Shown in pieces: positions 2,488-49,145 of a stretch of 56,103 nt of DNA. The stretch's first letter is position 1. Each line of letters begins with the position of its first letter. Origin of the DNA: a virus (lineage: Duplodnaviria > Caudoviricetes); the IMG/VR virus record IMGVR_UViG_3300034061_003450, positions 1-56,103 of that record. One strand, 5' to 3'. The translations under genes and the position numbers were made by a program. The notes beneath the pieces were generated by a model. It was not told where the DNA came from. It did no database searches and saw nothing but the letters and a program-made list of their open reading frames with translations.

Positions 2488-2505
2488 CCCCCCGCACCTG
2501 TGACC

Positions 2506-3369
2506 ATGACCGCAACCGCCCCACCAAGACCGAGACGCGGCGCCCGCAGCCTGAAGGTGCGCGAGGCGCCTGTCGGTGACACGTCCAAGCTCGGGAGCTT
2601 CCCGGCGCCGACGGCGATCTCTGAGCAGCTTGTCACCGAAAACCTCAAGCTTGCGTTTAGCCGCGCCAACCGGTACGCCGCTCGCACGCGGATGCCGTTG
2701 GATGATCTCGAAGCCGCGGCCTACGTCGGCCTGGTCCGTGGTGCTCGGGCGTTCGACCCAGCCCGCGGCTGGACATTCAGCACGTGCGCCGTGCGGTTCA
2801 TCGATGGCGCGATCCTCCGGTATCTCCGCGACCGGGGCCACGCCATCAAGTTCCCCATGCGTTGGCGGGAGATCGGTCCGAAGGTCCGCCGGCTGCTGAA
2901 TGAGGGCAAGACCCTCGCCGAGGTGACGGAAGCGACCGGGATGGAACCCGACGAGATCCGCGCCTTCATGGCTGCCACGGCGGCGCCGGGTGAGATCGAC
3001 CCCAACCTGATCGGCGCGTGTGATCCGCTGGAGTTCGTCGAACCAGGCACGCCTGAGGCCGATGATCTGGAGCGGATCCAGGCCGAAGCGTTCGCCAAGC
3101 TGATTCCTGCCGACCGGGTGATCCTGCAGCAGTTCTGGTCGGACCCTTCGCGGCAGGGTTACCCGATGCGGCAACTGGAGGCGCTGGATCGCGCCGTGCG
3201 ACGGATCACGGGGCCAGCTCAGCAGGCGCGATCAGTGGAGTCGATGCCGTTGGGGTTCAATGTGGAGCTGGCGGCAGTGCCGGAGGAGGGCAAGCGGACC
3301 AGGCGGAGCAGGACAGAGCTCGATGATGCAGCGGAGCAGATGGGCCTGCTGGCGTTACTGGAAAACTGA
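2506..3369 (+). CDS. RNA polymerase sigma-70 family factor (SigF/group 3-like), probable late sigma
   Basis: Region 2 motifs ENLKLA, DDLEAAAYVGLVRGARAFDPARGWTFSTCA, GAILRYLRD. Confidence 0.85.
   Translation: MTATAPPRPRRGARSLKVREAPVGDTSKLGSFPAPTAISEQLVTENLKLAFSRANRYAARTRMPLDDLEAAAYVGLVRGARAFDPARGWTFSTCAVRFIDGAILRYLRDRGHAIKFPMRWREIGPKVRRLLNEGKTLAEVTEATGMEPDEIRAFMAATAAPGEIDPNLIGACDPLEFVEPGTPEADDLERIQAEAFAKLIPADRVILQQFWSDPSRQGYPMRQLEALDRAVRRITGPAQQARSVESMPLGFNVELAAVPEEGKRTRRSRTELDDAAEQMGLLALLEN
3360..3369 (+). promoter_or_regulatory. GGAAAACTGA putative late promoter motif; other exact copies start at 6101, 12439, 15474, 19780, 22342, 23220 and 25180
   Basis: Exact 10-mer recurs immediately upstream of structural gene starts. 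Confidence 0.75.
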
Positions 3370-7237: not shown

Positions 7238-7732
7238 ATGGCCAGCCCGTTCGCCGAGGTCGCCAACGCCCGCATCCTCTGGTCCAAGCCCACGGCGATG
7301 CCTACGAACTTCCGCGAGGGCTGGAGCGGTGGGACGACGGATCGCGTCGTGGTGGAGCTGTTCCTCAAGGCCAGCCAGCCCAGCTCGCTTGACCTGGCAT
7401 CACCCGAGGGCCGGCGGTCGCTGGTGGCCGGCGCTGATCGATCCGTGAGCGCATGGGTGACCAGGTGGGCGGTGCTGCCCGATGGTGCCGACTGGCTGGC
7501 GGCCGGCACCGGCTGGACGTGGACCGATACGGGACTGCTGCCGGCGGGCCTCGGGCCTGGGCGGCTGGCGCTGCCGCTCTACTGGGGGCCTCTGCCGCCG
7601 TCGACCGTGGGGCAGACCTGCACGTTGAACATTGACCAGGCGGGCGGTGACTATGGAACCGGAGGCATCGGCGCGGAGATCCGTGCAGAGGCCGGGGATC
7701 AGATCATCGGGTCGCTGCAGTTCTCAAAATGA
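7238..7732 (+). CDS. putative head-closure / neck protein
   Basis: Position; closely packed with neighbours. Confidence 0.5.
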   Translation: MASPFAEVANARILWSKPTAMPTNFREGWSGGTTDRVVVELFLKASQPSSLDLASPEGRRSLVAGADRSVSAWVTRWAVLPDGADWLAAGTGWTWTDTGLLPAGLGPGRLALPLYWGPLPPSTVGQTCTLNIDQAGGDYGTGGIGAEIRAEAGDQIIGSLQFSK

Positions 7733-8211
7733 AGGTCACCGTCAAGAGTTCAAAGCGGCTGGCATCGGCAGCAAAGGCCGCGAATGAGGCAGCGGCGCGG
7801 GCGGTGTTCGCGGAGCTCGCCGGGAGGTTTCAGGATGCGCTGCGCCGGCCCGTGTGGGAGTGGAGCCCGGTCTATGCCGAGGGTTCAACCGGCACCGGGA
7901 TCACCGTCCGATCGAACGGCCAAGTGGTCGGCTCCCCGCGGAACATCATCGACGCCGCAACTCTGGCCCAATCGCAACAGGCGCCGCAGATCACCGGGAT
8001 GCGTGCGGTGTTTCGATGGACGGCGGCGAATGATGATGGGGTCGGATATTCGACCGCGGTTCACGAGGGCGCGACCTTGCGGAACGGCACCCTGCTGCCC
8101 GCCCGACCCTGGACCCGCGCCGTACTCGGCGTCGAGAAAGTCGACGGCATCCCGGTGTACGACGCCCGCAAGCGGTTCCGGGATGTGTGGCTGAAGCGGT
8201 ATAGAGGCTAA
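7729..8211 (+). CDS. HK97 gp10-like tail completion protein (putative)
   Basis: RNIIDAATLAQS, YSTAVHEG and PARPW resemble gp10-family motifs. Confidence 0.6.
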   Translation: MKVTVKSSKRLASAAKAANEAAARAVFAELAGRFQDALRRPVWEWSPVYAEGSTGTGITVRSNGQVVGSPRNIIDAATLAQSQQAPQITGMRAVFRWTAANDDGVGYSTAVHEGATLRNGTLLPARPWTRAVLGVEKVDGIPVYDARKRFRDVWLKRYRG

Positions 8212-33942: not shown

Positions 33943-34896
33943 TTACATCGCCTCCTTATTGATGACGGACTGCAGAAAGGCACGCGCCATCTCGTTTGTT
34001 GCATAGAAGTGCGCGTGAGCTTCGACGCCTAACAGCAACAGCCCACCGAGGTCATTTCCGTTGGTCTTAATCAGAAGCCTTGCTAACGGCCCGCCTAGAT
34101 GCTCAGCCCAACCGCAAATGCAATGAGTGGTCTCGCACGTATGCCAGTCGCTCATCTCCAATGCGTCATCAGTTGCCAGCGCGGCATGGGCAACAGCCAG
34201 CAACCTGGACGGCGCATCCTCGGCAATGGGAAGGCCAATGGCGTAGCTGAGGTTGGCGTCGCGGAGGTTGGCGTAGCTGAGGTTGGCGCTGCGGAGGTTG
34301 GCGTAGCTGAGGTTGGCGCCGCTGAGGATGGCGCCGCTGAGGTTGGCGCCGCTGAGGTCGGCGCTGCGGAGGTTGGCGTAGCGGAGGTTGGCGTCGCTGA
34401 GGTTGGCGTCGCGGAGGATGGCGCCGCTGAGGTTGGCGCCGCTGAGGTCGGCGCTGCGGAGGTTGGCGTAGCTGAGGTTGGCGCCGCTGAGGATGGCGCC
34501 GCTGAGGTTGGCGCCGCTGAGGTTGGCGCTGCGGAGGTCGGCGCTGCGGAGGTTGGCGTCGCTGAGGATGGCGTCGCGGAGGATGGCGTCGCGGAGGATG
34601 GCGTAGCTGAGGTCGGCGTAGCTGAGGATGGCGTAGCGGAGGATGGCGTAGCTGAGGTTGGCGTAGCTGAGGTTGGCGTCGCGGAGGTTGGCGTCGCGGA
34701 GGATGGCGCCGCTGAGGTTGGCGCCGCTGAGGTCGGCGCTGCGGAGGTTGGCGTAGCGGAGGTTGGCGCCGCTGAGGATGGCGCCGCTGAGGTTGGCGCC
34801 GCTGAGGTTGGCGCGGGCGCCGACTGGGTTATTAGCCAGCCATAGACCGTGGAGCCTAAGGATTTCTTTCAACTCGTCTTGCGTGTACGTAGTCAT
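33943..34896 (-). CDS. pentapeptide repeat protein with C-terminal WHTCETTHC domain
   Basis: 38 A(N/I/D)L(S/R)x repeats. Confidence 0.9.
   Translation of the reverse strand: MTTYTQDELKEILRLHGLWLANNPVGARANLSGANLSGAILSGANLRYANLRSADLSGANLSGAILRDANLRDANLSYANLSYAILRYAILSYADLSYAILRDAILRDAILSDANLRSADLRSANLSGANLSGAILSGANLSYANLRSADLSGANLSGAILRDANLSDANLRYANLRSADLSGANLSGAILSGANLSYANLRSANLSYANLRDANLSYAIGLPIAEDAPSRLLAVAHAALATDDALEMSDWHTCETTHCICGWAEHLGGPLARLLIKTNGNDLGGLLLLGVEAHAHFYATNEMARAFLQSVINKEAM
34243..34812 (-). repeat. 15-bp tandem repeat array, 38 units
   Basis: GCC RWC CTC MGC DRC units. Confidence 0.95.
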
Positions 34897-35111
34897 CGGG
34901 ATGTCACGGTGAGGGTGAACGGCAGGCCATCGCTGATGAACAGCGCGGCCATGCTCAGAACGTCGTCGTCGCGGGCGAAGTCGTCGCACACGCCGTTCTC
35001 GAAGTGGAATCGATAGGAGCTGTCGCCTGGCCCGGGGTCGTGGACCACGGTGCAGAGGGGGTGGGCTTCAACGTCGGCCAGCGACGCGAGCGGGGTGAGG
35101 GTTGCAGTCAT
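34893..35111 (-). CDS. hypothetical protein
   Basis: Coupled ORF starting MTATLT. Confidence 0.55.
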   Translation of the reverse strand: MTATLTPLASLADVEAHPLCTVVHDPGPGDSSYRFHFENGVCDDFARDDDVLSMAALFISDGLPFTLTVTSR

Positions 35112-37724: not shown

Positions 37725-38465
37725 TTACTGGGCGCTGCTCAGCAGGGGGTGGGCATCAGCCGGAATCCCGTCGTCGTTCAAGGTCCGGACCATCGCCGCC
37801 AGATCCACCAGCTCAGCGGTCAGCTCGTCAACGTCGTAACTATCCAGCCCAGCGACCACAGCCTTGAGCTTGGCGATCCGGCCCGGGTCCCGTGACGGGT
37901 ACGCCCGCAGCAGTTCCGGCAGCCCATCACTGAGCAGCCGGCCGCGATCGGCGCACCACTGCTGGCAATGGCGGGAAATCCAGCGACTCAGGCTGGCGGC
38001 ACCCTCGGCCGTTGGTTTCGCCGCCACGCCAGTCAGCGACAGCCGGCCGATCCATACCAGGAACAGGTCGCCCGCGTGCAACGGCAGCCCCGTCACCGGA
38101 TGCGCCAGCCAGAACGGCTCGTCAGGTTCCCATGGCCGGACCGGCGGGCGTTTCAGGTTTCGATCTGCCATCGCTGCAGCTTCGCCCCGGTCGCAGCCCG
38201 ACAGCCAGGCGAGCGCCAGATTCAACTGGCCGAGGGAGTCGAACAGCTTGGGGCCGGGCCGCAGATACTGCCCGTTCCTAAGCATCGAAATCTGCCCCGA
38301 CCCGAGCCATGAGCGCTGCTCAGGGTATGCCCAGTTGGCCAGATCCTCTAGGTTCTGATTCGACAGGCCATTGCGGGCCATCAGGGCGCGGAATGCCCGG
38401 GTGAATGTGTCCAGTCCGTCGCGGTAGCGCTGATCAGCAGGGCCGAGGGTGTCATGGTTCTCCAT
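37725..38465 (-). CDS. putative HTH (XRE-like) regulator / repressor candidate
   Basis: RALMARNGLSNQNL...SGQISMLRNG...P HTH-like N-terminus. Confidence 0.5.
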   Translation of the reverse strand: MENHDTLGPADQRYRDGLDTFTRAFRALMARNGLSNQNLEDLANWAYPEQRSWLGSGQISMLRNGQYLRPGPKLFDSLGQLNLALAWLSGCDRGEAAAMADRNLKRPPVRPWEPDEPFWLAHPVTGLPLHAGDLFLVWIGRLSLTGVAAKPTAEGAASLSRWISRHCQQWCADRGRLLSDGLPELLRAYPSRDPGRIAKLKAVVAGLDSYDVDELTAELVDLAAMVRTLNDDGIPADAHPLLSSAQ

Positions 38466-38560
38466 GGTTGGCAGTCTGGAGTTCCGGATCACAGCGGGCT
38501 AGGGCGGTCTTAATGAGGATGACCGATCCCCTACAGATCGGCTGCGGTCAAGATACAGCA

Positions 38561-38586
38561 TAAAAGAGGGCCCCCGAGGGGGCCCA
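38561..38586 (-). terminator. intrinsic terminator after the AbrB-like gene
   Basis: gggcccc stem followed by a T-run on the - strand. Confidence 0.7.
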
Positions 38587-38609
38587 TCAGTTGCTCGCAA
38601 CCGCTACCG

Positions 38610-38972
38610 TCAATCGTCGCTGACGGGCTCCAGTGTGATGCGCCCGCGGCTGACGCGGATTTGCAGCGTATGGCCCTCGCGGGCGCCGATCTGCTCCAGA
38701 TACCGGGCGCCAACGACAGCATGACCGACGCCAGTGAGGACGCGGGTCTGATAGGTCAGCGGCCGACCCGGGCGGCCCTTGGCGCGTTCCTTGTCATGCA
38801 GGGCGCCCTTTGCCTGGAGGAGGGCCTCATAGAAGCCGGTGAAGTTGGTGCGGGCCTTACCTTCGGCGGTAGTGCTCACGTATCCAGTCTCCCGGGCGAG
38901 GGTGGTTTTGTTCGCACCCTGCGCGTTCAGTTCGTCCACCTTTGCCAGTAGTGCGGGGCCAGTCAGGGCCAT
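38610..38972 (-). CDS. cyanobacterial AbrB-like (cyAbrB) transcription regulator
   Basis: LTG..LL.KV, ARETGY, NFTGFYEALLQAKG, GRPLTY, VVGARY. Confidence 0.88.
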   Translation of the reverse strand: MALTGPALLAKVDELNAQGANKTTLARETGYVSTTAEGKARTNFTGFYEALLQAKGALHDKERAKGRPGRPLTYQTRVLTGVGHAVVGARYLEQIGAREGHTLQIRVSRGRITLEPVSDD

Positions 38973-39171
38973 CGGGCATCTTGCAGTTCTCGGTAAGGAT
39001 AATAACCACAGCCGCCAGTGCTAGGCGGGGTTTGCGCACTGCGGATAAGTTGACCGACGGTTTGCTATCTGGTCATGCGCACGTCGGTGGATTTGTCGAA
39101 CCTTGGCGACGAGCTTGAGGCGTTGGCGGAGATGCTGGAGAGGATTGAGGAGGGGAGGGGCGCCGATGGGG

Positions 39172-39414
39172 TCACTGAGCCGGAGGAAGAGGAAGAGCCG
39201 GAGGAGTGACCGCCCTGGCATTGGCCATCCGCTGCCGGTTCGCCTCACGCCCGGCCGGCGATCGCTTCCAGCACCGCGAGCACAGCGGCGCCGTCCTGGT
39301 GGAGCGCACCAGCCGCGGGCATTCCAGGCACGGCTGCGGGGCAGCGGGATCGGGGAGTCCGCGCTGGCGGGCCCGGTAGCGGCGGGTCCGGGCGGCGCCG
39401 GTGGGGTCAGACAT
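39172..39414 (-). CDS. basic-helix + C4 zinc-finger protein (paralog A)
   Basis: DPTGAARTRRYRARQ, CLEC, CSRCW. Confidence 0.75.
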   Translation of the reverse strand: MSDPTGAARTRRYRARQRGLPDPAAPQPCLECPRLVRSTRTAPLCSRCWKRSPAGREANRQRMANARAVTPPALPLPPAQ

Positions 39415-39733
39415 CGCCAAGCTCCACCATCGAGGGCCAGTCGGGCATCGTTGAGTCGTAGGCCGCTTCCAGGGCGAACATCAGATCGCAGTCCGGGATC
39501 TCGATGCTGCCGCCCTCAACTGGCCAGTTGCATAGGCCGTTGGAATCGCGGCATCTGGCCAGCACCTCCTCAACGGTGGGGACGCCGGGCCCGAATGTCT
39601 CGCGGATCAGCTTGATTCGTTCATTGATGGGCGTGGCCTGAAATTGCTCGACGGTCATCGTGGCGTCGCGATCGATGTACTGGCGCCACAGATCCCAGTC
39701 GGTGGCCAGTTCGTAGTGGGTGTGAGCGGTCAT
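39407..39733 (-). CDS. hypothetical cargo protein
   Basis: MTAHTHYEL...; follows the conserved leader. Confidence 0.65.
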   Translation of the reverse strand: MTAHTHYELATDWDLWRQYIDRDATMTVEQFQATPINERIKLIRETFGPGVPTVEEVLARCRDSNGLCNWPVEGGSIEIPDCDLMFALEAAYDSTMPDWPSMVELGDV

Positions 39734-39755
39734 GGCAGGCAGTGCAGTGGGGTGG

Positions 39756-39935
39756 TCAGCGGGTGACCTTGTAACCGTGGCGCTCAAGCAGGGCGATGGC
39801 GGCGGCGATCTCGTCGGCGGGGAGTGCCGGCCGGGCCGTGGCGCCCAGCTCGGCGGCCAGGCCGCGGTAGAGCCGCGCATCCGACTCCGCCAGATCGCGG
39901 AGTGTGGAGCGGAGCTGGTCGGCGATGACGCCCAT
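39756..39935 (-). CDS. hypothetical protein (59 aa)
   Basis: MGVIADQLRSTL...LLERHGYKVTR read from the sequence. Confidence 0.6.
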   Translation of the reverse strand: MGVIADQLRSTLRDLAESDARLYRGLAAELGATARPALPADEIAAAIALLERHGYKVTR

Positions 39936-40023
39936 GGGTCGTGGTGCGGGGGGACTTCCCCATTGTGCACCACAACGTCACGGGATGGCCAGGCGTTGCG
40001 GAATGTTGACGGCTTAACCCGCT

Positions 40024-40070
40024 GCCGTCACGGATGCGCTAGGGTATGGACATCGGGAGGGAGGCCTCCC
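40024..40070 (+). promoter_or_regulatory. repeated promoter/operator/hairpin unit (second copy 40821-40867)
   Basis: gccgtcacg..tgcgctagg.ta....catcgg followed by a hairpin in both copies. Confidence 0.75.
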
Positions 40071-40091
40071 AATTCCACCGCACAGCCAGAC

Positions 40092-40292
40092 ATGCTCACA
40101 GCCAAAGAAATGCTCCGCTTCGCCAACGAGTACAGCCCCGAGCAAATCGAAGAGTTTGCCGCCCGCATTCTTGCTAGTACCACCCAGGCAGAACGCACGG
40201 CGATTCTCCGTGAGTTCAACGCCAACCTGCCCGGCGAAGGCGAAAACAACCACCCGCAATCGCTTGCGCTTTTCAACGCCTGCCAGCCATGA
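40092..40292 (+). CDS. hypothetical cargo protein
   Basis: MLTAKEMLRF... downstream of the promoter unit. Confidence 0.65.
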   Translation: MLTAKEMLRFANEYSPEQIEEFAARILASTTQAERTAILREFNANLPGEGENNHPQSLALFNACQP

Positions 40293-40348
40293 CCCCTGCG
40301 GCCCGCCGGGAGCCCATCCCGGCAACCCTTCCCACTGCACTGCCTGTA

Positions 40349-40561
40349 ATGACTGCCACCACGTATCGAGTCGAAGCCCACGACGGCAAGCGCTGGGGAT
40401 TCGGCATCCGGGTCAACGACAACAGCAACCTGCCGGAGTTCTGCAGCTTGACGCTTGCCGAACAGTTCCCCACCCGGGCTGAGGCGTTTGAACTCCGCGA
40501 CCATGCCGCCCGAATCTGTGGCGGTTCGCTCCGGGTTGCTGCCGTCCGCGACGATGCCTGA
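40349..40561 (+). CDS. hypothetical cargo protein
   Basis: MTATTYRV...; follows the conserved leader. Confidence 0.6.
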   Translation: MTATTYRVEAHDGKRWGFGIRVNDNSNLPEFCSLTLAEQFPTRAEAFELRDHAARICGGSLRVAAVRDDA

Positions 40562-40781
40562 CCCCACCAGCGCCGAGCGGAGCCGCCGCTACCGCGAGCG
40601 CCAAGCCGGCCGCCTGGCACCAGCCGTCAAGGTCACGTGCCAGGCGTGCGGCATTCTCCACACCGGCGCCCGTGGCGACCACTGCTCCCGCTGCTGGGAA
40701 CGTGAAACGCCCGAGGGCCGCAGGTTCAAGGCTGGCCGGGTGGCTCGCGCCTACGCCCGCAAAAAAGCCCAAACCGGTTGA
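40554..40781 (+). CDS. basic-helix + C4 zinc-finger protein (paralog B)
   Basis: DPTSAERSRRYRERQ, CQAC, CSRCW. Confidence 0.75.
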   Translation: MPDPTSAERSRRYRERQAGRLAPAVKVTCQACGILHTGARGDHCSRCWERETPEGRRFKAGRVARAYARKKAQTG

Positions 40782-40887
40782 TTGTTACGAGAGATCAACC
40801 TGGCGCCACTGTCTCGCCATGCCGTCACGCGTGCGCTAGGATAAAGGCATCGGAGGGGAGGCCCTCCACCACCACACAACCCCAGCC

Positions 40888-41040
40888 ATGAACTCCAACA
40901 CCATCGTCGCCAAGATCGGTCAAAAGAACGCCGCCGACATGGCCATCAGGTTCAAAGCTCTGAAAATGGGCGCATCGGTCGAAATGATCAACGCCATGGA
41001 CGTGTTCGCCCTCCTCGATTGGATCTCCGACAATGCTTAA
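40888..41040 (+). CDS. hypothetical protein (50 aa)
   Basis: MNSNTIVAK...; follows the second promoter unit. Confidence 0.6.
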   Translation: MNSNTIVAKIGQKNAADMAIRFKALKMGASVEMINAMDVFALLDWISDNA

Positions 41041-41437
41041 TTCATTCCGCGTTTGGATTTACAAAGGGCTCTGGCAAACTGGCTATGAGCCCTACGACAT
41101 GCCAGGAGCCTATGCCAGAACCAGGTACTCGCTTGCGTCAGTCGACAACAGCGGCGTGCCCAAGGACGGCACTTACAAGGGCATCATGATTGCAGACAAG
41201 ACCTTGCGGCTTATTGCCGGTGGTGAATGCCATGGCGGATCTGTTGTAAATCACTTATTTTCTGATTTTCTTGTCGAGTTTGACGACCATTATCACGATG
41301 AGTACAGGCGCGGGCTGGAGCGTGGTTTCAAAGGAAAGCGCTGCTGCTCCGATCGGTATCTTTGCTCCAAGTCCCAAGACTGGAGAGACGGCTACCGAAA
41401 TGGGCTAGAAGCCAAGCTCCAAGCATTAACCGCTTGA
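41033..41437 (+). CDS. hypothetical protein, lower GC
   Basis: Overlapping coupled ORF. Confidence 0.6.
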   Translation: MLNSFRVWIYKGLWQTGYEPYDMPGAYARTRYSLASVDNSGVPKDGTYKGIMIADKTLRLIAGGECHGGSVVNHLFSDFLVEFDDHYHDEYRRGLERGFKGKRCCSDRYLCSKSQDWRDGYRNGLEAKLQALTA

Positions 41438-41444
41438 CTCTCCC

Positions 41445-41468
41445 GCCCCGGCCAGCCCGGGGCTTTTT
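41445..41468 (+). terminator. intrinsic terminator
   Basis: gccccgg-ccagc-ccggggc followed by ttttt. Confidence 0.8.
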
Positions 41469-41477
41469 CATGGCCTA

Positions 41478-41590
41478 CGGTTCCCCCACCGGGTCGGCCC
41501 ATCTTCCGTAAGGGGGGCGGCGTGGTCGGCTCGTGTGGGGTCGGCCTGAAACGCTACCGAAGGCCCGGTACCAGCTACCGAGGAATCCTC
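41478..41590 (+). ncRNA. candidate structured RNA
   Basis: Nested G-U-rich stems with a GUAA tetraloop plus a second hairpin; intergenic. Confidence 0.4.
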
Positions 41591-41600
41591 GGCAGCTCGA

Positions 41601-41786
41601 TCACGCCAGCAACCGCCGCACCGTCGAGCGGCTGCAACCGAGCCGCCCCGCGATCGCGGATTGAGTGAGCCCCTGGCGCCGCCACCGGCGGGCCCGCTCC
41701 TGGCGCCCTTCGCTCAGGTGGGCCAGGACAAGGACAGGAAGGAGCAGCAGGGCAACCGCCCACGCCGCAACGCATGAAATGGACAT
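41601..41786 (-). CDS. membrane-anchored HTH protein
   Basis: TM helix followed by GLTQSAIAGRLGCSRSTVRRLL. Confidence 0.75.
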   Translation of the reverse strand: MSISCVAAWAVALLLLPVLVLAHLSEGRQERARRWRRQGLTQSAIAGRLGCSRSTVRRLLA

Positions 41787-41982
41787 GATCAGTTCGGGGG
41801 TGATCAGCCGCGGCGGCGCTCTCGGCCGGCCGGGGCTGGGAATAGGTGCCAACGGAGAACGCCCGTCCATCCGCTGGCTTCCTGATCATACCCCGGCCGT
41901 TTGCGTTGCGGTGGTGTGTTGCATGAAGTGAACGGGTCCATCGCAGACGGGATAGGGTGGGGGGAGCACTCGCCTATGACCC

Positions 41983-42255
41983 ATGAAGGTCTCAATCACT
42001 CGAACCAGCCCGAACGGGCTGCAGGCTCAATACAACAGCACCATGAGCGCGGCCGCACAGGTCTGCATCAGATGGCGAAACCAGTTCTCTGGCGTCACCT
42101 GCATGTCCATTGATCAGGCCGAAGAACTGCAGGCACTGCTCAATACCCTCCTGTCAGAAGTGGGCAAGACGCGCCCCATGACGCTGGGCGATCGCGTCAC
42201 GCTGGCGACCGTGGAGACCGTCTATGGCTCCGAGCTGCCCACCATCGATGTCTGA
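41983..42255 (+). CDS. hypothetical protein
   Basis: First gene of the recombinase operon. Confidence 0.55.
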   Translation: MKVSITRTSPNGLQAQYNSTMSAAAQVCIRWRNQFSGVTCMSIDQAEELQALLNTLLSEVGKTRPMTLGDRVTLATVETVYGSELPTIDV

Positions 42256-42472
42256 CGGCACCCCCTACGAATGGCAGCCGATCCGCACCGCCTCCACGGA
42301 CGGGACTGAAATCCTGGTGCTGGCTGAATATCAAGGCCTGCGAGAGGTGCACCTTGCTATCGGTGAACGCGGCATGTGGTGGTCGCCGGACAGAGAGCGC
42401 ATCCTGTCGATCGATCCCACCCACTGGATCCCGGCACCGCCCTGGCCTGACGCCGCTGGCTCTGACGGCTGA
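42248..42472 (+). CDS. DUF551-like protein
   Basis: WQPIRTASTDGTEILV...PTHWIPAP. Confidence 0.7.
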   Translation: MSDGTPYEWQPIRTASTDGTEILVLAEYQGLREVHLAIGERGMWWSPDRERILSIDPTHWIPAPPWPDAAGSDG

Positions 42473-42474
42473 GG

Positions 42475-44259
42475 ATGCTCGGCGTCTCTTACTTGCGCTA
42501 CAGCAGCGCCGGCCAATCCGGCGGCACCAGCATCCTGCGCCAGACCGCCAACCCCGAGGCCTACTGCAAGGCCCGCGGCTGGCGGCTGTGGGAAGGCCCA
42601 GCCTATTCCGATCCGGGCGTGAGCGCCTTCGCCGGTGATCACCTGGCTGATGGTGACCTGGGCCGCTTCCTGGCCGACCACCGCGCCGGACGCTTCGGGG
42701 GTGAGCCGGTGGCCCTGCTGCTCGAGGACGTGGACCGATTCAGCCGGGCGTTTCCGCTGGCGGTGCTGCCGGTGCTGGTGGATGACGTGCTCAATGCAGG
42801 CATCACCCTCAGCCTGCTCAGTTTTGATCGGGACTACAGCCGCGAGAGCATCCGCGCCAACCCCCTTGAGCTGCAGGAGCTGCTGATGCGCCTCAGCGCC
42901 GCCCACGAGTTCAGCGAGAGGCTGAGCCGGCGAATCACCTTCGCGCACCAGCAGCGCCGCCAAGCCATCCGCGCCGGCCAGCCCACAGCACCCGGGCAGG
43001 CGCCGTCCTGGCTCAACCTGGGCCCCAGTGGCTGGGAGTTCAACTGGTACGCGCCCATCGTGCGCCGGGCCCTCGCCCTCAGCGCTGAGCACGGGGCCGC
43101 GGCGGTGGCCAGGATCATGAACGCCGAGGGCGTGCCATCCCCGGGCGAGGCGGTGCAGGCCCGGCGCCAGAACAACCCACGCCGCCGCCCCACCGCCGAA
43201 CCCAGGCGCATCCGCTGGACCGCCAGCACCGTGCAGCAGCTGCTGAGCGCACCGCAGATCCGCGGCGCCCGGCCCATCCGCACCCCCGGGCACAGTGCCA
43301 GGCTCCGGGCATGGAAGGAGCGCACCGCCCAACTGGCCCGCCAGGGTGTGGCCCGCAGCGACTGGCCCGCCCGCCCGCAGCAGACATGGGACCAGCCACA
43401 GGAGGCCTACTATCCCGCCCTGCTCACGCCGGCCGAGCACGCCGACCTGCTGGCGATGGTGGCCCGCCGCTGCCCACCGGAAGCCGGCCGCACCGATCGC
43501 CAGCGGTGGATTGCCAGCACCATGACCCGCTGTATCTGCGGCGAACGGATGGGCGCCACCGGCACCACCAGGCTGCAGGCCGCCGGCGTGAAGCGCTTCC
43601 TCTACCTGCGCTGCCGTGGCGCCGGCCGCAACGGAACCTGCTCCGCCCCGCTGGTGCCCATCCCTGTGGCACAGGCCCACCTGCTCACGCGGCTCACCGG
43701 CGATGACTTCGCCGTCATGCTCCAGCGCGATGCCGGCGCCGACCGGGCCCAAGCGCTGGCTGCGGCGATCCAGCACCAGCAGACTGCCGAGCTGGCCGTC
43801 GTCCGCCTCCAGCAGCAGCAACGGGCCGGCGATGCCGCCATGGCCATAGAGACCGACGCCCTGGTGCTCGGCGTGCTGGCCCGGCGCCAGGCCGTGATCG
43901 AGGCCCAGGCGCAGCAGGCTGCCCGGGCGCTGGCTGCGGCTCAGCGTGCGGTCGCGAAGGCGCAGGCGGCACCCTCCCTGGCCGCCCTTGGCGCTGCGGC
44001 ACAGGAGGAGATCCGCCGGACGCTGGCACGGTTTTCTGCTGGTGACGACTCAGAGGATGATCGGCGCATGGTCTGGCGCCACCTGCGGGCGCTGGGTCTG
44101 CGGGTGACGATCGACACGGCAGCGATGCGAATGGCGTTGCAGGTTGGCGACGGGCAGGCGGACTGGCAGCCGATCGATCCGGAGCTGGCTGCTTATGCCC
44201 TGAGCGCTGCAGCCACCGGGGCGGTGTTCGGGGACAACATCGTGTCGTGGGAGACCTGA
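42475..44259 (+). CDS. large serine recombinase (integrase)
   Basis: YLRYSS catalytic Ser, YSDPGVSA, EDVDRFSR, YPALL, zinc ribbon CICG...C...C, coiled coil. Confidence 0.9.
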   Translation: MLGVSYLRYSSAGQSGGTSILRQTANPEAYCKARGWRLWEGPAYSDPGVSAFAGDHLADGDLGRFLADHRAGRFGGEPVALLLEDVDRFSRAFPLAVLPVLVDDVLNAGITLSLLSFDRDYSRESIRANPLELQELLMRLSAAHEFSERLSRRITFAHQQRRQAIRAGQPTAPGQAPSWLNLGPSGWEFNWYAPIVRRALALSAEHGAAAVARIMNAEGVPSPGEAVQARRQNNPRRRPTAEPRRIRWTASTVQQLLSAPQIRGARPIRTPGHSARLRAWKERTAQLARQGVARSDWPARPQQTWDQPQEAYYPALLTPAEHADLLAMVARRCPPEAGRTDRQRWIASTMTRCICGERMGATGTTRLQAAGVKRFLYLRCRGAGRNGTCSAPLVPIPVAQAHLLTRLTGDDFAVMLQRDAGADRAQALAAAIQHQQTAELAVVRLQQQQRAGDAAMAIETDALVLGVLARRQAVIEAQAQQAARALAAAQRAVAKAQAAPSLAALGAAAQEEIRRTLARFSAGDDSEDDRRMVWRHLRALGLRVTIDTAAMRMALQVGDGQADWQPIDPELAAYALSAAATGAVFGDNIVSWET

Positions 44260-46133: not shown

Positions 46134-47564
46134 TCAAGCGACAGGAGGTTGACGGCGGCCCTTCGGCCGGCGTTGTTGGTCGGGCAGTACCTGCCCCTTA
46201 ATCCGGGCGTAGCGGGCATTCAGTGCCGCCCACACTTCGCGGTCCTTGAACTCAAAGTGGACCGTGCCTTTCTTGTATGGCCGGAACAGGAAGAAGCCCC
46301 AGTCGTGCCAGCAGCCGGGCTCATAGCTGTTGGCGCTGATGCCCTCAGGTGTGCGCACTTCCTCAATGGCGCGGCCGGTGATATAACACAAAGCCTTGAT
46401 CAGATCCTGGATGTCATCCCACTGGCTGCCGTAGGTCTCGATCCGTACCCTTCCGGAGCCATTCCATGCCACCTGCGCAAGTTGGGAACAGATGAAACGC
46501 TTATTCAGCATGTAACCCAAGTTTGTCACCCATCCTTCTACGCCATACCGGTTCTCCTTAGTATACTTAGTCAGCTCATCAATCGCTTCCTCCACTGCTC
46601 GATCGATCCGCTGGTCCTGCGTGCCGGCGACGATCTGCAGCATCCGGTAGATGTTCCGCTCCGTGAACGGGATGCGGCTCTGCTGCTCGACGAACCTGTT
46701 GATGTCTTTTGCGAGCTGGCTGGTGGCCATCTGCTGTGGCAGGAACTCATCAAAGACGTGCTTCCATGCCTGCTTCTGGAGGTCCTTGCGGAACCGGTTA
46801 CGGGCGACTGGCTGACCTTCGATCGTGACCTGCAGGCCCAGGTCCTTACCGAAGAAGCCATCAAGCACGGACTGCAGCCGCACGCCAGCCGCCACCTGTT
46901 CATCAAAGATTCGGCACGCTTCCACGTACCTGTTCACGATGTCGCGGCTGCGGCGGTAGGGGATGATCCCTTCGCCCTGGGCTTCGATGTCGTCAGGCCC
47001 GAGGAAGAAGCCGTCGAACTCATCGGCGCCGGGCTTGGCGCCAGGTTTCGTTAGGCGGATCAGGCCGACGCGCACCCTGGTGGAGCGCTCGGAGTCGGCG
47101 AAGCACTCGCCCAGATCTGCCTTGCTGCCGTAGGCCTCCATCAGCTTCGCAAGCTGCAGTTGCAGGCCCCGGTAGTGACCGCTGATGGTGTTCCAGTTGC
47201 AGAGCGCCACGATCTCGCAACCGGGTGGCGCAACCGCCCAAGCGTGGAGGATGTGGGCCTCGTCCGCCGAGAACGGCGGGTTCATCACGATCGCGTCGAC
47301 GTGGCTGATCTGATCAGCGGTGACCATGAGCCAGTCGTTGCTGAGCAGCCGGCTGGCGGGGATGCCGGCGAGAATCGTCCGGAGCTCAGGCTCAGGTTCT
47401 GCGGTCAGCACCTCGGCGGCGCCACGGGCCAGGCACTCGCGCACCAGGTTGCCGCTGCCGGCGGATGGTTCGATGACGACCCGGCCGCGCAGGTCAAGTT
47501 GATCGAGCATCGTGGCGGCCACCTCGGGAGGGGTGGGGTAAAAGTCGGGACCGAACAGGCTCAC
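46134..47564 (-). CDS. N6-adenine DNA methyltransferase with DUF4942-like domain
   Basis: DFYPTP, EPSAGSG, MNPPF; C-terminal WGFF..RPYKKGTVHFEF. Confidence 0.85.
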   Translation of the reverse strand: MSLFGPDFYPTPPEVAATMLDQLDLRGRVVIEPSAGSGNLVRECLARGAAEVLTAEPEPELRTILAGIPASRLLSNDWLMVTADQISHVDAIVMNPPFSADEAHILHAWAVAPPGCEIVALCNWNTISGHYRGLQLQLAKLMEAYGSKADLGECFADSERSTRVRVGLIRLTKPGAKPGADEFDGFFLGPDDIEAQGEGIIPYRRSRDIVNRYVEACRIFDEQVAAGVRLQSVLDGFFGKDLGLQVTIEGQPVARNRFRKDLQKQAWKHVFDEFLPQQMATSQLAKDINRFVEQQSRIPFTERNIYRMLQIVAGTQDQRIDRAVEEAIDELTKYTKENRYGVEGWVTNLGYMLNKRFICSQLAQVAWNGSGRVRIETYGSQWDDIQDLIKALCYITGRAIEEVRTPEGISANSYEPGCWHDWGFFLFRPYKKGTVHFEFKDREVWAALNARYARIKGQVLPDQQRRPKGRRQPPVA

Positions 47565-47869
47565 GCCACCCTCCTTTTCGGCGCCGCCGATCGCCGCAGC
47601 CGGTCGATGCAGGCCGGCAGGTCATCGCCGCTGACGCCTTCCCGGTGCATGCTCTCCAGCCCAGCAGCAAGCACCAGGCAGGGCTCCGGTGAGCCTCCTT
47701 CGCCGATGGCACGCATGCACTCACGGTGCATCGCATGGCAGGCGTTATGACACGCGGTCTCAATCAGGTCTTGATCAGGCATGGCTGCAAACGGTGGGTT
47801 CACCAGCAGCAGGCCCGTGCCGGCCGCTGGTTCGTACGTTGTGGGTGGGTACCAGGTGAATCGCGTCAC
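47561..47869 (-). CDS. hypothetical protein
   Basis: Coupled ORF; start uncertain (47869 or 47782). Confidence 0.5.
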   Translation of the reverse strand: MTRFTWYPPTTYEPAAGTGLLLVNPPFAAMPDQDLIETACHNACHAMHRECMRAIGEGGSPEPCLVLAAGLESMHREGVSGDDLPACIDRLRRSAAPKRRVA

Positions 47870-48711
47870 GCCGCCACCTCCAGTAGTAACCGCAACCGGT
47901 TCAACGCACGCTTTTCCCGCTGCCGCACCCGCTCACGGCTCACGCCCAACCGCTTGCCGATCGATGCCAATGTCACCAGTTCATGGCTGCCGTATCGCAG
48001 GCCGATGATCTGCTGATCGATCGGCTGCAGATGCTGCATCGCCTGTTCCAGTTGTTCTCGCGCCGTTGTATTCAGCAGCTCGTCATCCGGCGACTGGTCA
48101 ACATCAGCCACCGCATCAACCAAGGCATTGCCGTCCTCGATCACCACCTCGTCAAGGCTGACCAGGCTCCAAACCCTGAGGGCAATATCAAGCTCGGCCA
48201 TCGATACGCCCGTGGCTCGTGCGGCCTCCGTCAGTGATGCCGTCGGGTGTTGTCGCTGGTATTTCTTGATCTTGCCTATCTTTTCGATCTGATGCACCGG
48301 CAGCCGGACGATCTTATCTTGATCTGACACGCCCCGTGTGATCGAGTGCCAGATCCACCAGTAAGCATAGGTGCTGAACTTGTAGCCGCGTTCCGGCTCA
48401 AATTTCTCCGCTGCCTTGGCTAGGCCAATATTGCCCAGGCTGATCACATCCATCAGCTCCAGCGTCTGGCACATCCGGTAGTATTTTCGGGCGATGGTCA
48501 CCACCAGTCGTAGGTTGGATTCCATCATCCGTTTGATCGCTCGCTGGCCGTTGCGCACCAGTCGTCGCTCAGCTTGTGTGGCGGGCTCGCGACCCTCAGC
48601 CTGGAACGCACGCATCTCCTGGATCTGTCGGCCTAACTGGATCTCCTGCTCAGTGGTCAGCAGCGGGATGCGGCCGATCTCGTTGAAGTAGGCGGTGGTT
48701 GAGTCGTGCAT
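47866..48711 (-). CDS. RpoD/group 2-like sigma-70 factor
   Basis: EIGRIPLLT..QEI, SNLRLVV, EKFEPERGYKFSTYAYWWI, IVRLPVH, LGVSRERVRQ. Confidence 0.93.
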   Translation of the reverse strand: MHDSTTAYFNEIGRIPLLTTEQEIQLGRQIQEMRAFQAEGREPATQAERRLVRNGQRAIKRMMESNLRLVVTIARKYYRMCQTLELMDVISLGNIGLAKAAEKFEPERGYKFSTYAYWWIWHSITRGVSDQDKIVRLPVHQIEKIGKIKKYQRQHPTASLTEAARATGVSMAELDIALRVWSLVSLDEVVIEDGNALVDAVADVDQSPDDELLNTTAREQLEQAMQHLQPIDQQIIGLRYGSHELVTLASIGKRLGVSRERVRQREKRALNRLRLLLEVAA

Positions 48712-49145
48712 CAGAACACCACGGTCGGGGTGATGGCTGGCGTCGCCGCTGCTGCTGGGGCTGCAGGCGCTGCGGTAGGGGCAGTGTTCCCGGTCACCAC
48801 TGGGGCCCATTCCTCCACGCGGATCAGCAAATCCGTGCGTTCCATGCCACTGCGATCGGTCCACCTGTCGGTGCTGACTCGGCCGGTGACCTTCACGAGA
48901 TCACCCTTCCGCAGTTCGTTCGCTGCGCCCTCAGCATCCTCGCCCCACAGCTCAGCCTTGAACCAGTCGGGCGGCAGTGCGTTTGGGTCGTTCTTCTTTT
49001 GCCCCGGCCGGTTCACCGCCAAGCTGAGCTTGGTCTTGCAGGTGCCGGAGTTGAAATACTGAATCTCGGGATCACTGCCGAGGCGGCCGATCACGGTTTG
49101 CTGCGTCGATCGAAGGACCGCCGCCATGAGCTCAAGGATGTCCAT
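48711..49145 (-). CDS. ssb: single-stranded DNA-binding protein
   Basis: IGRLGSDPEIQY, LAVNR, DWFKAELWG, KGDLVKVTGR. Confidence 0.9.
   Translation of the reverse strand: MDILELMAAVLRSTQQTVIGRLGSDPEIQYFNSGTCKTKLSLAVNRPGQKKNDPNALPPDWFKAELWGEDAEGAANELRKGDLVKVTGRVSTDRWTDRSGMERTDLLIRVEEWAPVVTGNTAPTAAPAAPAAAATPAITPTVVF

Follow-up and report, generated by a model that had tools for sequence, protein, structure and literature searches.

Promoter-early stem-loop (PeSL) cassettes of the hyperplastic regions of T4-like myoviruses embody, as far as the available portions of the reports describe them, the same concept as the locus analysed here (PMC2839356, PMC4122927), so that the view of the first-pass annotation of this DNA, which had recognized no described system, could not be maintained. 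In a second related arrangement, the acr-aca operon, the anti-CRISPR (acr) gene is followed by a gene for Aca, a repressor of the helix-turn-helix type (PMC9638941, PMC9001735). Our subject is a stretch of eight small genes (positions 39172-41468) between the recombination genes and the recombinase gene of the lake-water phage IMGVR_UViG_3300034061_003450, whose viral record is complete at 56,103 bp, carries direct repeats at its termini and has a GC content of ~64%; the whole 56,103-bp DNA is referred to as the window. We consider it reasonably probable that the locus is a plastic accessory-gene region in which slots for cargo genes are framed by two repeated intergenic modules, a promoter-like one (PE) and an intercistronic one (IE), with a zinc-ribbon gene family (Zf) encoding a putative regulator and the cargo protein A2 acting as a putative anti-CRISPR.

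Judged by the available text on PeSL cassettes, both arrangements consist of repeated composite intergenic motifs that reach from a stop codon to the next start codon, both place a sigma-70-like promoter (putative in the present case) and a stem-loop ahead of small genes of unknown function, and in both, the insertions, deletions and replacements that distinguish related phages occur at these motifs. Within the same limits of the sources, they differ in that the present phage is temperate and siphovirus-like with a serine recombinase rather than a T4-like myovirus, and in that its promoter-like modules have neither a recognizable −35 nor an AT-rich upstream tract. The stem-loop here always follows the −10 and has no T-run, which makes a terminator function doubtful, and there is a second, promoter-less module (IE) as well as a conserved zinc-ribbon gene welded to the module.

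With the acr-aca operons of D3112 and LESphi4 the locus shares a promoter (putative here), small variable genes including an AcrIE4-family member, and a small conserved end gene; in one related locus (L040) an AcrIE4-like gene lies directly upstream of Zf. Zf likewise stands downstream of the cargo but, unlike Aca, has no helix-turn-helix, and it shows no likeness to any Aca. The present units follow one another in a chain in which Zf borders the next putative promoter, and most cargo is of unknown function. The acr-aca analogy proposed in the first-pass annotation is genuinely supported by one cargo gene, A2, which carries an AcrIE4-family domain. The closest known counterparts of the locus are PeSL cassettes, whose concept it matches, and acr-aca operons, which its layout resembles.

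Organization of the locus

Based on its gene content (large terminase, portal-like protein, tape measure, large serine recombinase, helicase, RecT and a PD-(D/E)XK exonuclease), the 56-kb phage is classed as temperate and siphovirus-like. Its host is likely a freshwater picocyanobacterium: the only genome match of Zf lies on a contig of a Synechococcaceae metagenome-assembled genome (MAG), and Synechococcus phage S-H1 is matched by A1 and by the IE hairpin. The features of the locus are the following:

39172-39414, minus strand: ZfA, 80-amino-acid four-Cys zinc-ribbon protein, paralog of ZfB
39407-39733, minus strand: A2, 108-amino-acid two-domain cargo protein; residues 2-48 (nt 39590-39730) AcrIE4-family, residues ~50-108 a second small domain
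39736-39751, minus strand: left copy of the 16-nt leader, a hairpin-less IE remnant in the 22-nt gap between A1 and A2
39756-39935, minus strand: A1, 59-amino-acid cargo protein of family F11, present in 9 loci
39936-40010, minus strand: left-arm upstream region with a hairpin GGGG-AAGT-CCCC within a longer stem; fold z-score −2.9
40006-40091, plus strand: PE copy 1, −10-like TAGGGT at 40040-40045, 5' hairpin at 40055-40070; nhmmer E 5e-16
40092-40292, plus strand: B1, 66-amino-acid cargo protein
40290-40348, plus strand: IE, with the B1 stop, hairpin at 40305-40323, CCCAYTGCAY leader and B2 start; nhmmer E 3e-15
40349-40561, plus strand: B2, 70-amino-acid cargo protein of family F38
40554-40781, plus strand: ZfB, 75-amino-acid zinc-ribbon protein
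40795-40887, plus strand: PE copy 2, CGTCACG at 40823, −10-like TAGGAT at 40837-40842, hairpin at 40852-40867; nhmmer E 1.5e-17
40888-41040, plus strand: C1, 50 amino acids, third-unit cargo
41033-41437, plus strand: C2, 134 amino acids, third-unit cargo
41445-41463 (feature 41445-41468), plus strand: intrinsic terminator closing the rightward units

The first-pass annotation had described two arms of one architecture, with an identical and inverted leader, paralogous terminal zinc-finger genes, cargo genes unrelated to each other, and a promoter/hairpin repeat ahead of a third unit. Indeed, the 16-bp leader CCCACTGCACTGCCTG is present exactly at 40331-40346 (+) and 39736-39751 (−), and the inverted repeat extends to 26 nt at 88%, taking in the ATGAC(C/T)GC sequence; a non-overlapping inverted exact repeat of ≥16 nt occurred in none of 300 first-order Markov simulations of the 4-kb region (maximum 15). 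ZfA and ZfB are paralogs that share 47% identity, their alignment having 34 invariant columns (E 5e-11), and the start of each overlaps the stop of its upstream gene by 8 nt (ATGYCTGA). No relationship was found between the cargo genes of the two arms (A2 versus B2, BLASTP E 1.1; A1 versus B1, no alignment). PE copy 1 carries CGTCACG palindromes at 39976 and 40026 and a CA-rich leader reaching the B1 start, and its part from 40023 to 40078 recurs at 40820-40875 with 77% identity before C1 and C2.

The common architecture of the arms stands for the leader and Zf, which occur in both, but not for the full promoter module of the right arm, which is not present in the left one. The upstream region of the left arm (39936-40010) gave no match to the PE model; a homologous region lies next to an A1 homolog in a related locus (L010). 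In the left arm the leader matches the leader part of the PE model weakly (E 0.57) and is not preceded by the hairpin found ahead of the right leader, so that the window holds one full IE copy and one hairpin-less remnant. An Rfam search of 38000-42600 gave nothing above chance. In the third unit, the GC content of C1 and C2 is clearly below that of the surroundings (third-position GC 0.58 in C2), a composition that suggests recent acquisition, and both genes are ~97% conserved in contigs from other lakes (records 7 and 22).

Conservation of the promoter-like module PE

A scan of viral contigs yielded 143 matching stretches, 53 of which encode a Zf relative; together with the two arms of the window these gave 42 distinct Zf genes. 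Genes in the related loci were called by codon usage, with a caller trained on the long genes of the window, and families were clustered by BLASTP. For PE, the first nhmmer hits at E ≤ 0.1 were aligned after merging of identical copies, giving 27 distinct sequences. The module extends from the stop codon of the preceding gene via a C/A-rich leader to an ATGAC start, and in its −10-like TAnnnT hexamer T, A and T are invariant in all 27 copies. Upstream of the hexamer, a CGTNACG palindrome lies in the spacer (~−23), often accompanied by another one ~41 bp further up (~−64), and a TGTGAACTGG box at ~−52 encloses the stop codon of Zf. Aca binds inverted repeats in acr promoters; as candidates for such sites in PE, the CGTNACG palindromes are not enriched in the window as a whole (17 observed versus 15 ± 3.9 expected).

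After the TAnnnT hexamer follows a hairpin of 6 bp that is 90.5% paired across the alignment; four of the six pairs change on both sides, a covariation reached by none of 500 shuffles and by none of the slid controls, which scored lower. All PE hits in Zf loci are on the Zf strand. Of the 42 distinct loci, 25 have a PE that begins 0-40 nt downstream of the Zf stop. Among the 36 loci whose sequence reaches 1500 nt upstream of Zf, 29 have a PE within this distance, separated from Zf by 0-3 genes. A search of the viral contigs for the exact core of PE retrieved only four new ones. By its layout, PE would act as a promoter.

The intercistronic module IE

IE measures ~64 nt from stop to start and consists of the stop codon, a C-rich tract, the hairpin GCCNGCCGGGAGCCYATCCCGGCA, a CCCAYTGCAY leader and the next start codon (21 of 22 distinct copies aligned, one near-duplicate having been dropped). 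The 16-mer leader of the first-pass annotation corresponds to the 3' half of this module. A search with the whole 16-mer at ≤3 mismatches had indicated that the leader is not conserved; this test was too strict, as the first 10 nt are conserved within IE. Its hairpin is 94.6% paired, with five of seven pairs hardly varying, and the module was found in 31 of the 42 distinct Zf loci.

IE reaches far beyond these loci. Its 24-nt hairpin core (window 40303-40326) is present exactly in 84 viral contigs (loci L086-L169), and the stretches fetched around it range in GC content from 39 to 70%. Among 95 instances of the core, a gene starts 10-59 nt downstream in 90, and a gene ends ≤45 nt upstream in 86; the neighbours fall into 61 downstream and 62 upstream clusters, the second-largest downstream cluster being AcrIE4-like. 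None of 301 sampled host-family genomes contained the core pattern, and a literature search gave no match to the hairpin sequence. Synechococcus phage S-H1 (L003, MK105819.1) has an IE-type hairpin at 7987-8013, 21 nt upstream of the coding sequence AZB50542, and an unannotated A1 homolog at 7534-7682 (DNA match); neither Zf nor a full PE was found in it.

Such a core, identical over so wide a range of base composition, placed nearly always between stop and start among many different genes, absent from the sampled host-family genomes and with most stem pairs invariant rather than covarying, would suit, instead of a passive expression signal, the site of a dedicated sequence-specific recombinase, nuclease or processing endoribonuclease by which cassettes are moved or cut, comparable to attC or REP/RAYT elements. 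We consider this explanation improbable. No protein partner common to most of the IE-bearing partial stretches was found, the commonest, SSB, occurring in 17; direct repeats or excision joints were not seen; and homology on both sides of the exchanged genes accounts for the observed breakpoints.

Two further candidates for IE were rejected. Integron cassettes did not fit in a comparison by eye, IE being far shorter than attC and the nearby recombinase being a serine and not a tyrosine enzyme. A role of the hairpin as a CRISPR-repeat mimic (RNA anti-CRISPR) was discarded after comparison with the type I-E repeats from arrays of host-family genomes, to which it bears no resemblance.

The zinc-ribbon gene family Zf

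Of 96 candidates from 90% clusters, 95 are related to ZfB at E ≤ 0.01, and a profile built from 50 sequences retrieved 151 representatives at E ≤ 1e-3 among 1.84 billion proteins, mostly of 65-100 amino acids. Invariant are C29, C32, C44, C47, W48, R16 and G55. Both termini are basic, and the N-terminal motif is arginine-rich (RSRRYRERQ) and conserved. Comparisons with Pfam, NCBIfam and PDB assigned Zf to no family, with only weak zinc-finger noise in Pfam at E ≤ 1; in PHROGs families of unknown function but no function-bearing family matched, an Atlas search with ZfB hit only unnamed viral clusters, and tblastn of ZfB against GenBank phages revealed no homolog. An NCBIfam scan of nine proteins of the locus likewise gave no match. 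Fusions link Zf to an HNH nuclease in five and to an FGE-sulfatase-like domain in four full-length cluster members (fusion proteins P0097, P0172 and P0229, which cover HNH nuclease, FGE-sulfatase-like and sigma-70 partners).

Translational coupling of Zf to its cargo is suggested by the gene junctions: of the 36 upstream genes on the same strand, 22 overlap the start of Zf or directly adjoin it. As the first-pass annotation had it, Zf ends the units in the window; in some loci, however, it lies in the middle of a long operon. A four-Cys ribbon with highly basic termini would be typical of nucleic-acid binders, and Zf is probably a nucleic-acid-binding regulator.

P2 Ogr and P4 Delta are four-Cys activators of ~70-80 amino acids, acting on late promoters that lack a good −35 and have an upstream element near −55. 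Zf resembles them in its size and four Cys, and several of the putative promoters are likewise without a good −35 and have a shared upstream element. The Cys spacing of Ogr/Delta differs from that of Zf, and no Pfam match to the Ogr/Delta family was obtained for ZfA or ZfB at E ≤ 1.

Zf might instead bind RNA in the manner of lambda N, recognizing the 5' hairpin of PE or the hairpin of IE through its arginine-rich N-terminus, and would then control read-through, processing or translation rather than initiation. Several features fit: the PE hairpin covaries like an RNA element and has loops that are mostly GAGA, GAAA or GAGG, it directly follows the predicted start site, much as nut sites lie early in lambda transcripts, and the N-terminal motif of Zf is both conserved and basic. 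We nevertheless rate this possibility as low, since Zf bears no likeness to N proteins or any RNA-binding family, its fusion to HNH nuclease speaks for DNA binding, no obvious terminators that would have to be overcome lie in the arrays, and IE mostly occurs without Zf. Still less likely is that Zf is an effector, e.g. one that inhibits an enzyme or a defence protein of the host, kept as the most useful gene of the island: no DNA-binding family was detected for it and the FGE-sulfatase-like fusions would agree with such a role, but the fixed Zf-PE junction and the stop codon inside the PE upstream box fit a promoter-tied one, and the basic termini and four-Cys ribbon would be typical of nucleic-acid binders.

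Turnover of cargo genes at module edges

The proposal of a conserved scaffold with variable cargo was borne out, as PE, IE and Zf are shared by related phages, in which other genes take the place of the intervening ones. Immediately upstream of Zf, 39 neighbours fall into 29 families, and downstream 40 neighbours fall into 32. In the comparison of L004 with L005, one gene is inserted together with its IE, and the gene after the common PE is replaced; L012 shares IE-B2-Zf-PE with the window, and the genes after each PE differ.

Contigs from two other lake-water metagenomes (X4, X6), which aligned to the locus at 85% likeness and stem from relatives rather than from the same phage, show the breakpoints. 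In these contigs, position 40346, the last base of the leader, is joined with two letters between to 40552, 2 nt before the ZfB start; B2 is therefore absent. B1 is replaced, with joints at 40094 in its start codon and at 40300 or 40312 at the start of IE, 616 letters of different sequence stand in place of A2 between 39403 and 39761, and the left unit lies 131 nt from the 41457-41573 terminator region. Thus, single genes turn over at module edges. The modules may not be dedicated recombination anchors, as the first-pass annotation had supposed, and may simply be expression signals that offer homology.

For each of A2, B2, A1 and B1, homologs of its own occur in other phages, where the genes are combined differently; homologs of B2, for example, lie upstream of Zf in L012 and L030. 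For B1 the sole match was a sub-threshold one to RHH (E 0.0034). A Pfam scan of 113 cargo proteins matched 17 families with one member each, some on the same protein, so that roughly nine in ten cargo proteins were without a match.

An ordinary early region, formed by local inverted duplication of a mini-operon with divergence of the middle genes and repetition of the early promoters of the lineage, would explain the presence, within 1.2 kb, of inverted copies of both Zf and the leader, and repeated early promoters are common in phages, but it is very unlikely in view of the separate homologs of A2/B2 and A1/B1, the loss or replacement of single genes exactly at module edges and the many neighbour families of Zf.

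Relationship of A2 to AcrIE4 and targeting by type I-E CRISPR

Residues 2-48 of A2 matched the Pfam family PF25703 ('AcrF31') with E 1.8e-9 and 37.9 bits (cut-off 27), and residues 2-49 matched residues 4-51 of AcrIE4-F7 (PDB 7VZM_A) with E 2.2e-4. The name 'AcrF31' or 'AcrIF31' gave no match in a literature search. By tblastn, this part of A2 showed 40-45% identity to a gene of 52-54 amino acids in the acr locus of D3112 (orf31) and LESphi4 (P41_31), which in these Mu-like Pseudomonas phages adjoins genes annotated AcrF2, AcrF3 and AcrIF5 and a regulator gene; D3112 gp31 we take to be AcrIE4. Relatives of A2 in three other loci scored 41.9 (L035), 29.1 (L040) and 25.9 (L033, below the cut-off of 27) against PF25703. 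In these three the AcrIE4 domain forms a protein by itself, which in L040 is encoded immediately upstream of Zf. Likewise, the C-terminal half of A2 occurs as a separate protein in L021, L027 and L056. Because both halves occur by themselves elsewhere, A2 is taken to be a fusion like AcrIE4-F7. As far as the accessible description of 7VZM goes, the N-terminal half of A2 aligns with AcrIE4-F7 over 47-48 residues and both proteins fuse two separately occurring small proteins; they differ in the C-terminal partner, which in A2 is not AcrIF7, and in the host, which is cyanobacterial here with a Cas8e other than the Pseudomonas protein. An Atlas search with the C-terminal domain of A2 gave no usable match.

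Binding of AcrIE4-F7 to Cas8e requires E19, Y20 and D22, according to the available part of the structural report (PMC8887544). A2 keeps Y20 and D22 of this Cas8e-binding helix and has Q in place of E19. Among the relatives, E19 is kept in L035, L040 and L033; at position 20, L035 retains Y, and L040 and L033 have W. By its AcrIE4 homology, A2 is a putative anti-CRISPR aimed at type I-E Cas8e of the host.

Cas8e was found in 11 of 301 sampled genomes of the family of the Synechococcaceae MAG, and CRISPR arrays with 175 spacers in total were present in seven of the 11 Cas8e neighbourhoods fetched. One of the 175 spacers matches the window at 46640-46678 over 39 nt with one mismatch; matches to it were obtained in the related contigs L071 and L059 as well. 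The spacer belongs to a type I-E array on a 3.18-Mb contig of genome G236 (locus L081), and the protospacer lies inside a DUF4942/methyltransferase-like gene at 46134-47564 (−). Hence, type I-E immunity targets this phage lineage. The mismatch affects the first spacer base, which L071 and L059 keep, and could be an escape change. G236 itself showed only a marginal Zf-like match (E 0.004).

Neighbouring genes

Two sigma-70 family proteins are encoded by the phage, one at 47866-48864 (−) with regions 1.2, 2 and 4 and one at 2500-3369 (+), between the terminase and portal genes, with region 2 only; sigma genes (family F2) are common in related Zf loci (17 loci). At 41601-41870 (−) a small protein is encoded in which a predicted membrane helix precedes a helix-turn-helix (HTH_23, HTH_38 and sigma-70 region 4-like matches); its relatives (family F20) occur in six related loci, once, in L056, immediately ahead of a Zf gene. 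Close to the left edge of the locus lie genes for an AbrB-like regulator (38610-38972, −) with its own terminator (38568-38585) and for a 246-amino-acid protein of family F36 (37725-38465, −), both of which may be lysogeny regulators. A candidate open reading frame at 39075-39209 (+) for an acidic protein of 44 amino acids has a good coding score and is convergent with ZfA, overlapping its 3' end by 38 nt. Between the exonuclease and the RecT-side genes, a 348-amino-acid pentapeptide-repeat protein is encoded at 33943-34989 (−). Pentapeptide-repeat proteins can mimic DNA, and by analogy this one may be a further counter-defence candidate.

Discussion

In the reading that we favour, that of a plastic accessory-gene region, PE and IE would supply every inserted gene with the same expression signals, IE being a promoter-less version of PE placed between cistrons. 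The modules would give 60-85 nt of homology, and related phages would swap the genes between them by ordinary homologous recombination, for which the phage-encoded RecT and exonuclease would be available. Zf would end the unit, translationally coupled to the preceding cargo, and would regulate the PE promoters in an Aca-like or Ogr-like role, and A2 would inhibit the type I-E Cas8e of the host.

A number of results weigh against this interpretation. A consensus scan of the region found no sigma-70 −35/−10 pair and PE has no recognizable −35, no RNA run was found to contain the locus, and no PE hit was obtained in eight distinct Zf loci (L013, L024-L026, L028, L039, L042, L055). As single sequences, the hairpins have unremarkable fold energies (z-scores −0.8 to −1.1); most IE stem pairs never vary, so that a DNA-level site is equally possible, and 57 of 80 scanned IE-bearing stretches contain no Zf (23 contain it). 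For Zf, neither a DNA- nor an RNA-binding family was matched, and the weak link to a sigma-70 factor, with Zf at its C-terminus, comes from a single sequence on one contig. The AcrIE4 match of A2 covers only 47 residues at 39-45% identity with Q in place of E19, one of the binding residues named in the accessible part of the structural report, and only one of ~113 cargo proteins matched an Acr family. Finally, the gene calls in the related loci come from our own simple codon-usage caller.

A bolder proposal, which we put forward only tentatively as it is rather unlikely to hold in full, combines two claims: that Zf represents a new class of regulator without helix-turn-helix marking anti-defence islands, and that the IE hairpin is the recognition site of a sequence-specific factor by which cassettes are processed or mobilized in widely differing phages. 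If true, the genes next to Zf in picocyanobacterial phages would amount to an inventory of counter-defence genes yet to be discovered.

Hardly any counter-defence genes of cyanophages are known, and the Acr candidates for these phages in the literature, so far as the accessible part of one report goes, are only machine-predicted ones (PMC9382816). The locus offers a family-level homolog of an anti-CRISPR in phages that are targeted by a type I-E spacer of the host. Zf, PE and IE can be used together to retrieve variable cargo through guilt by association, as aca in Pseudomonas, and Synechococcus phage S-H1, which grows on WH 7803 and has the IE hairpin and an A1 homolog, is a possible culture system. 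The locus is also evidence that the PeSL idea, by which regulatory cassettes serve at the same time as points of exchange, extends from T4-like phages to temperate phages of the siphovirus-like type.

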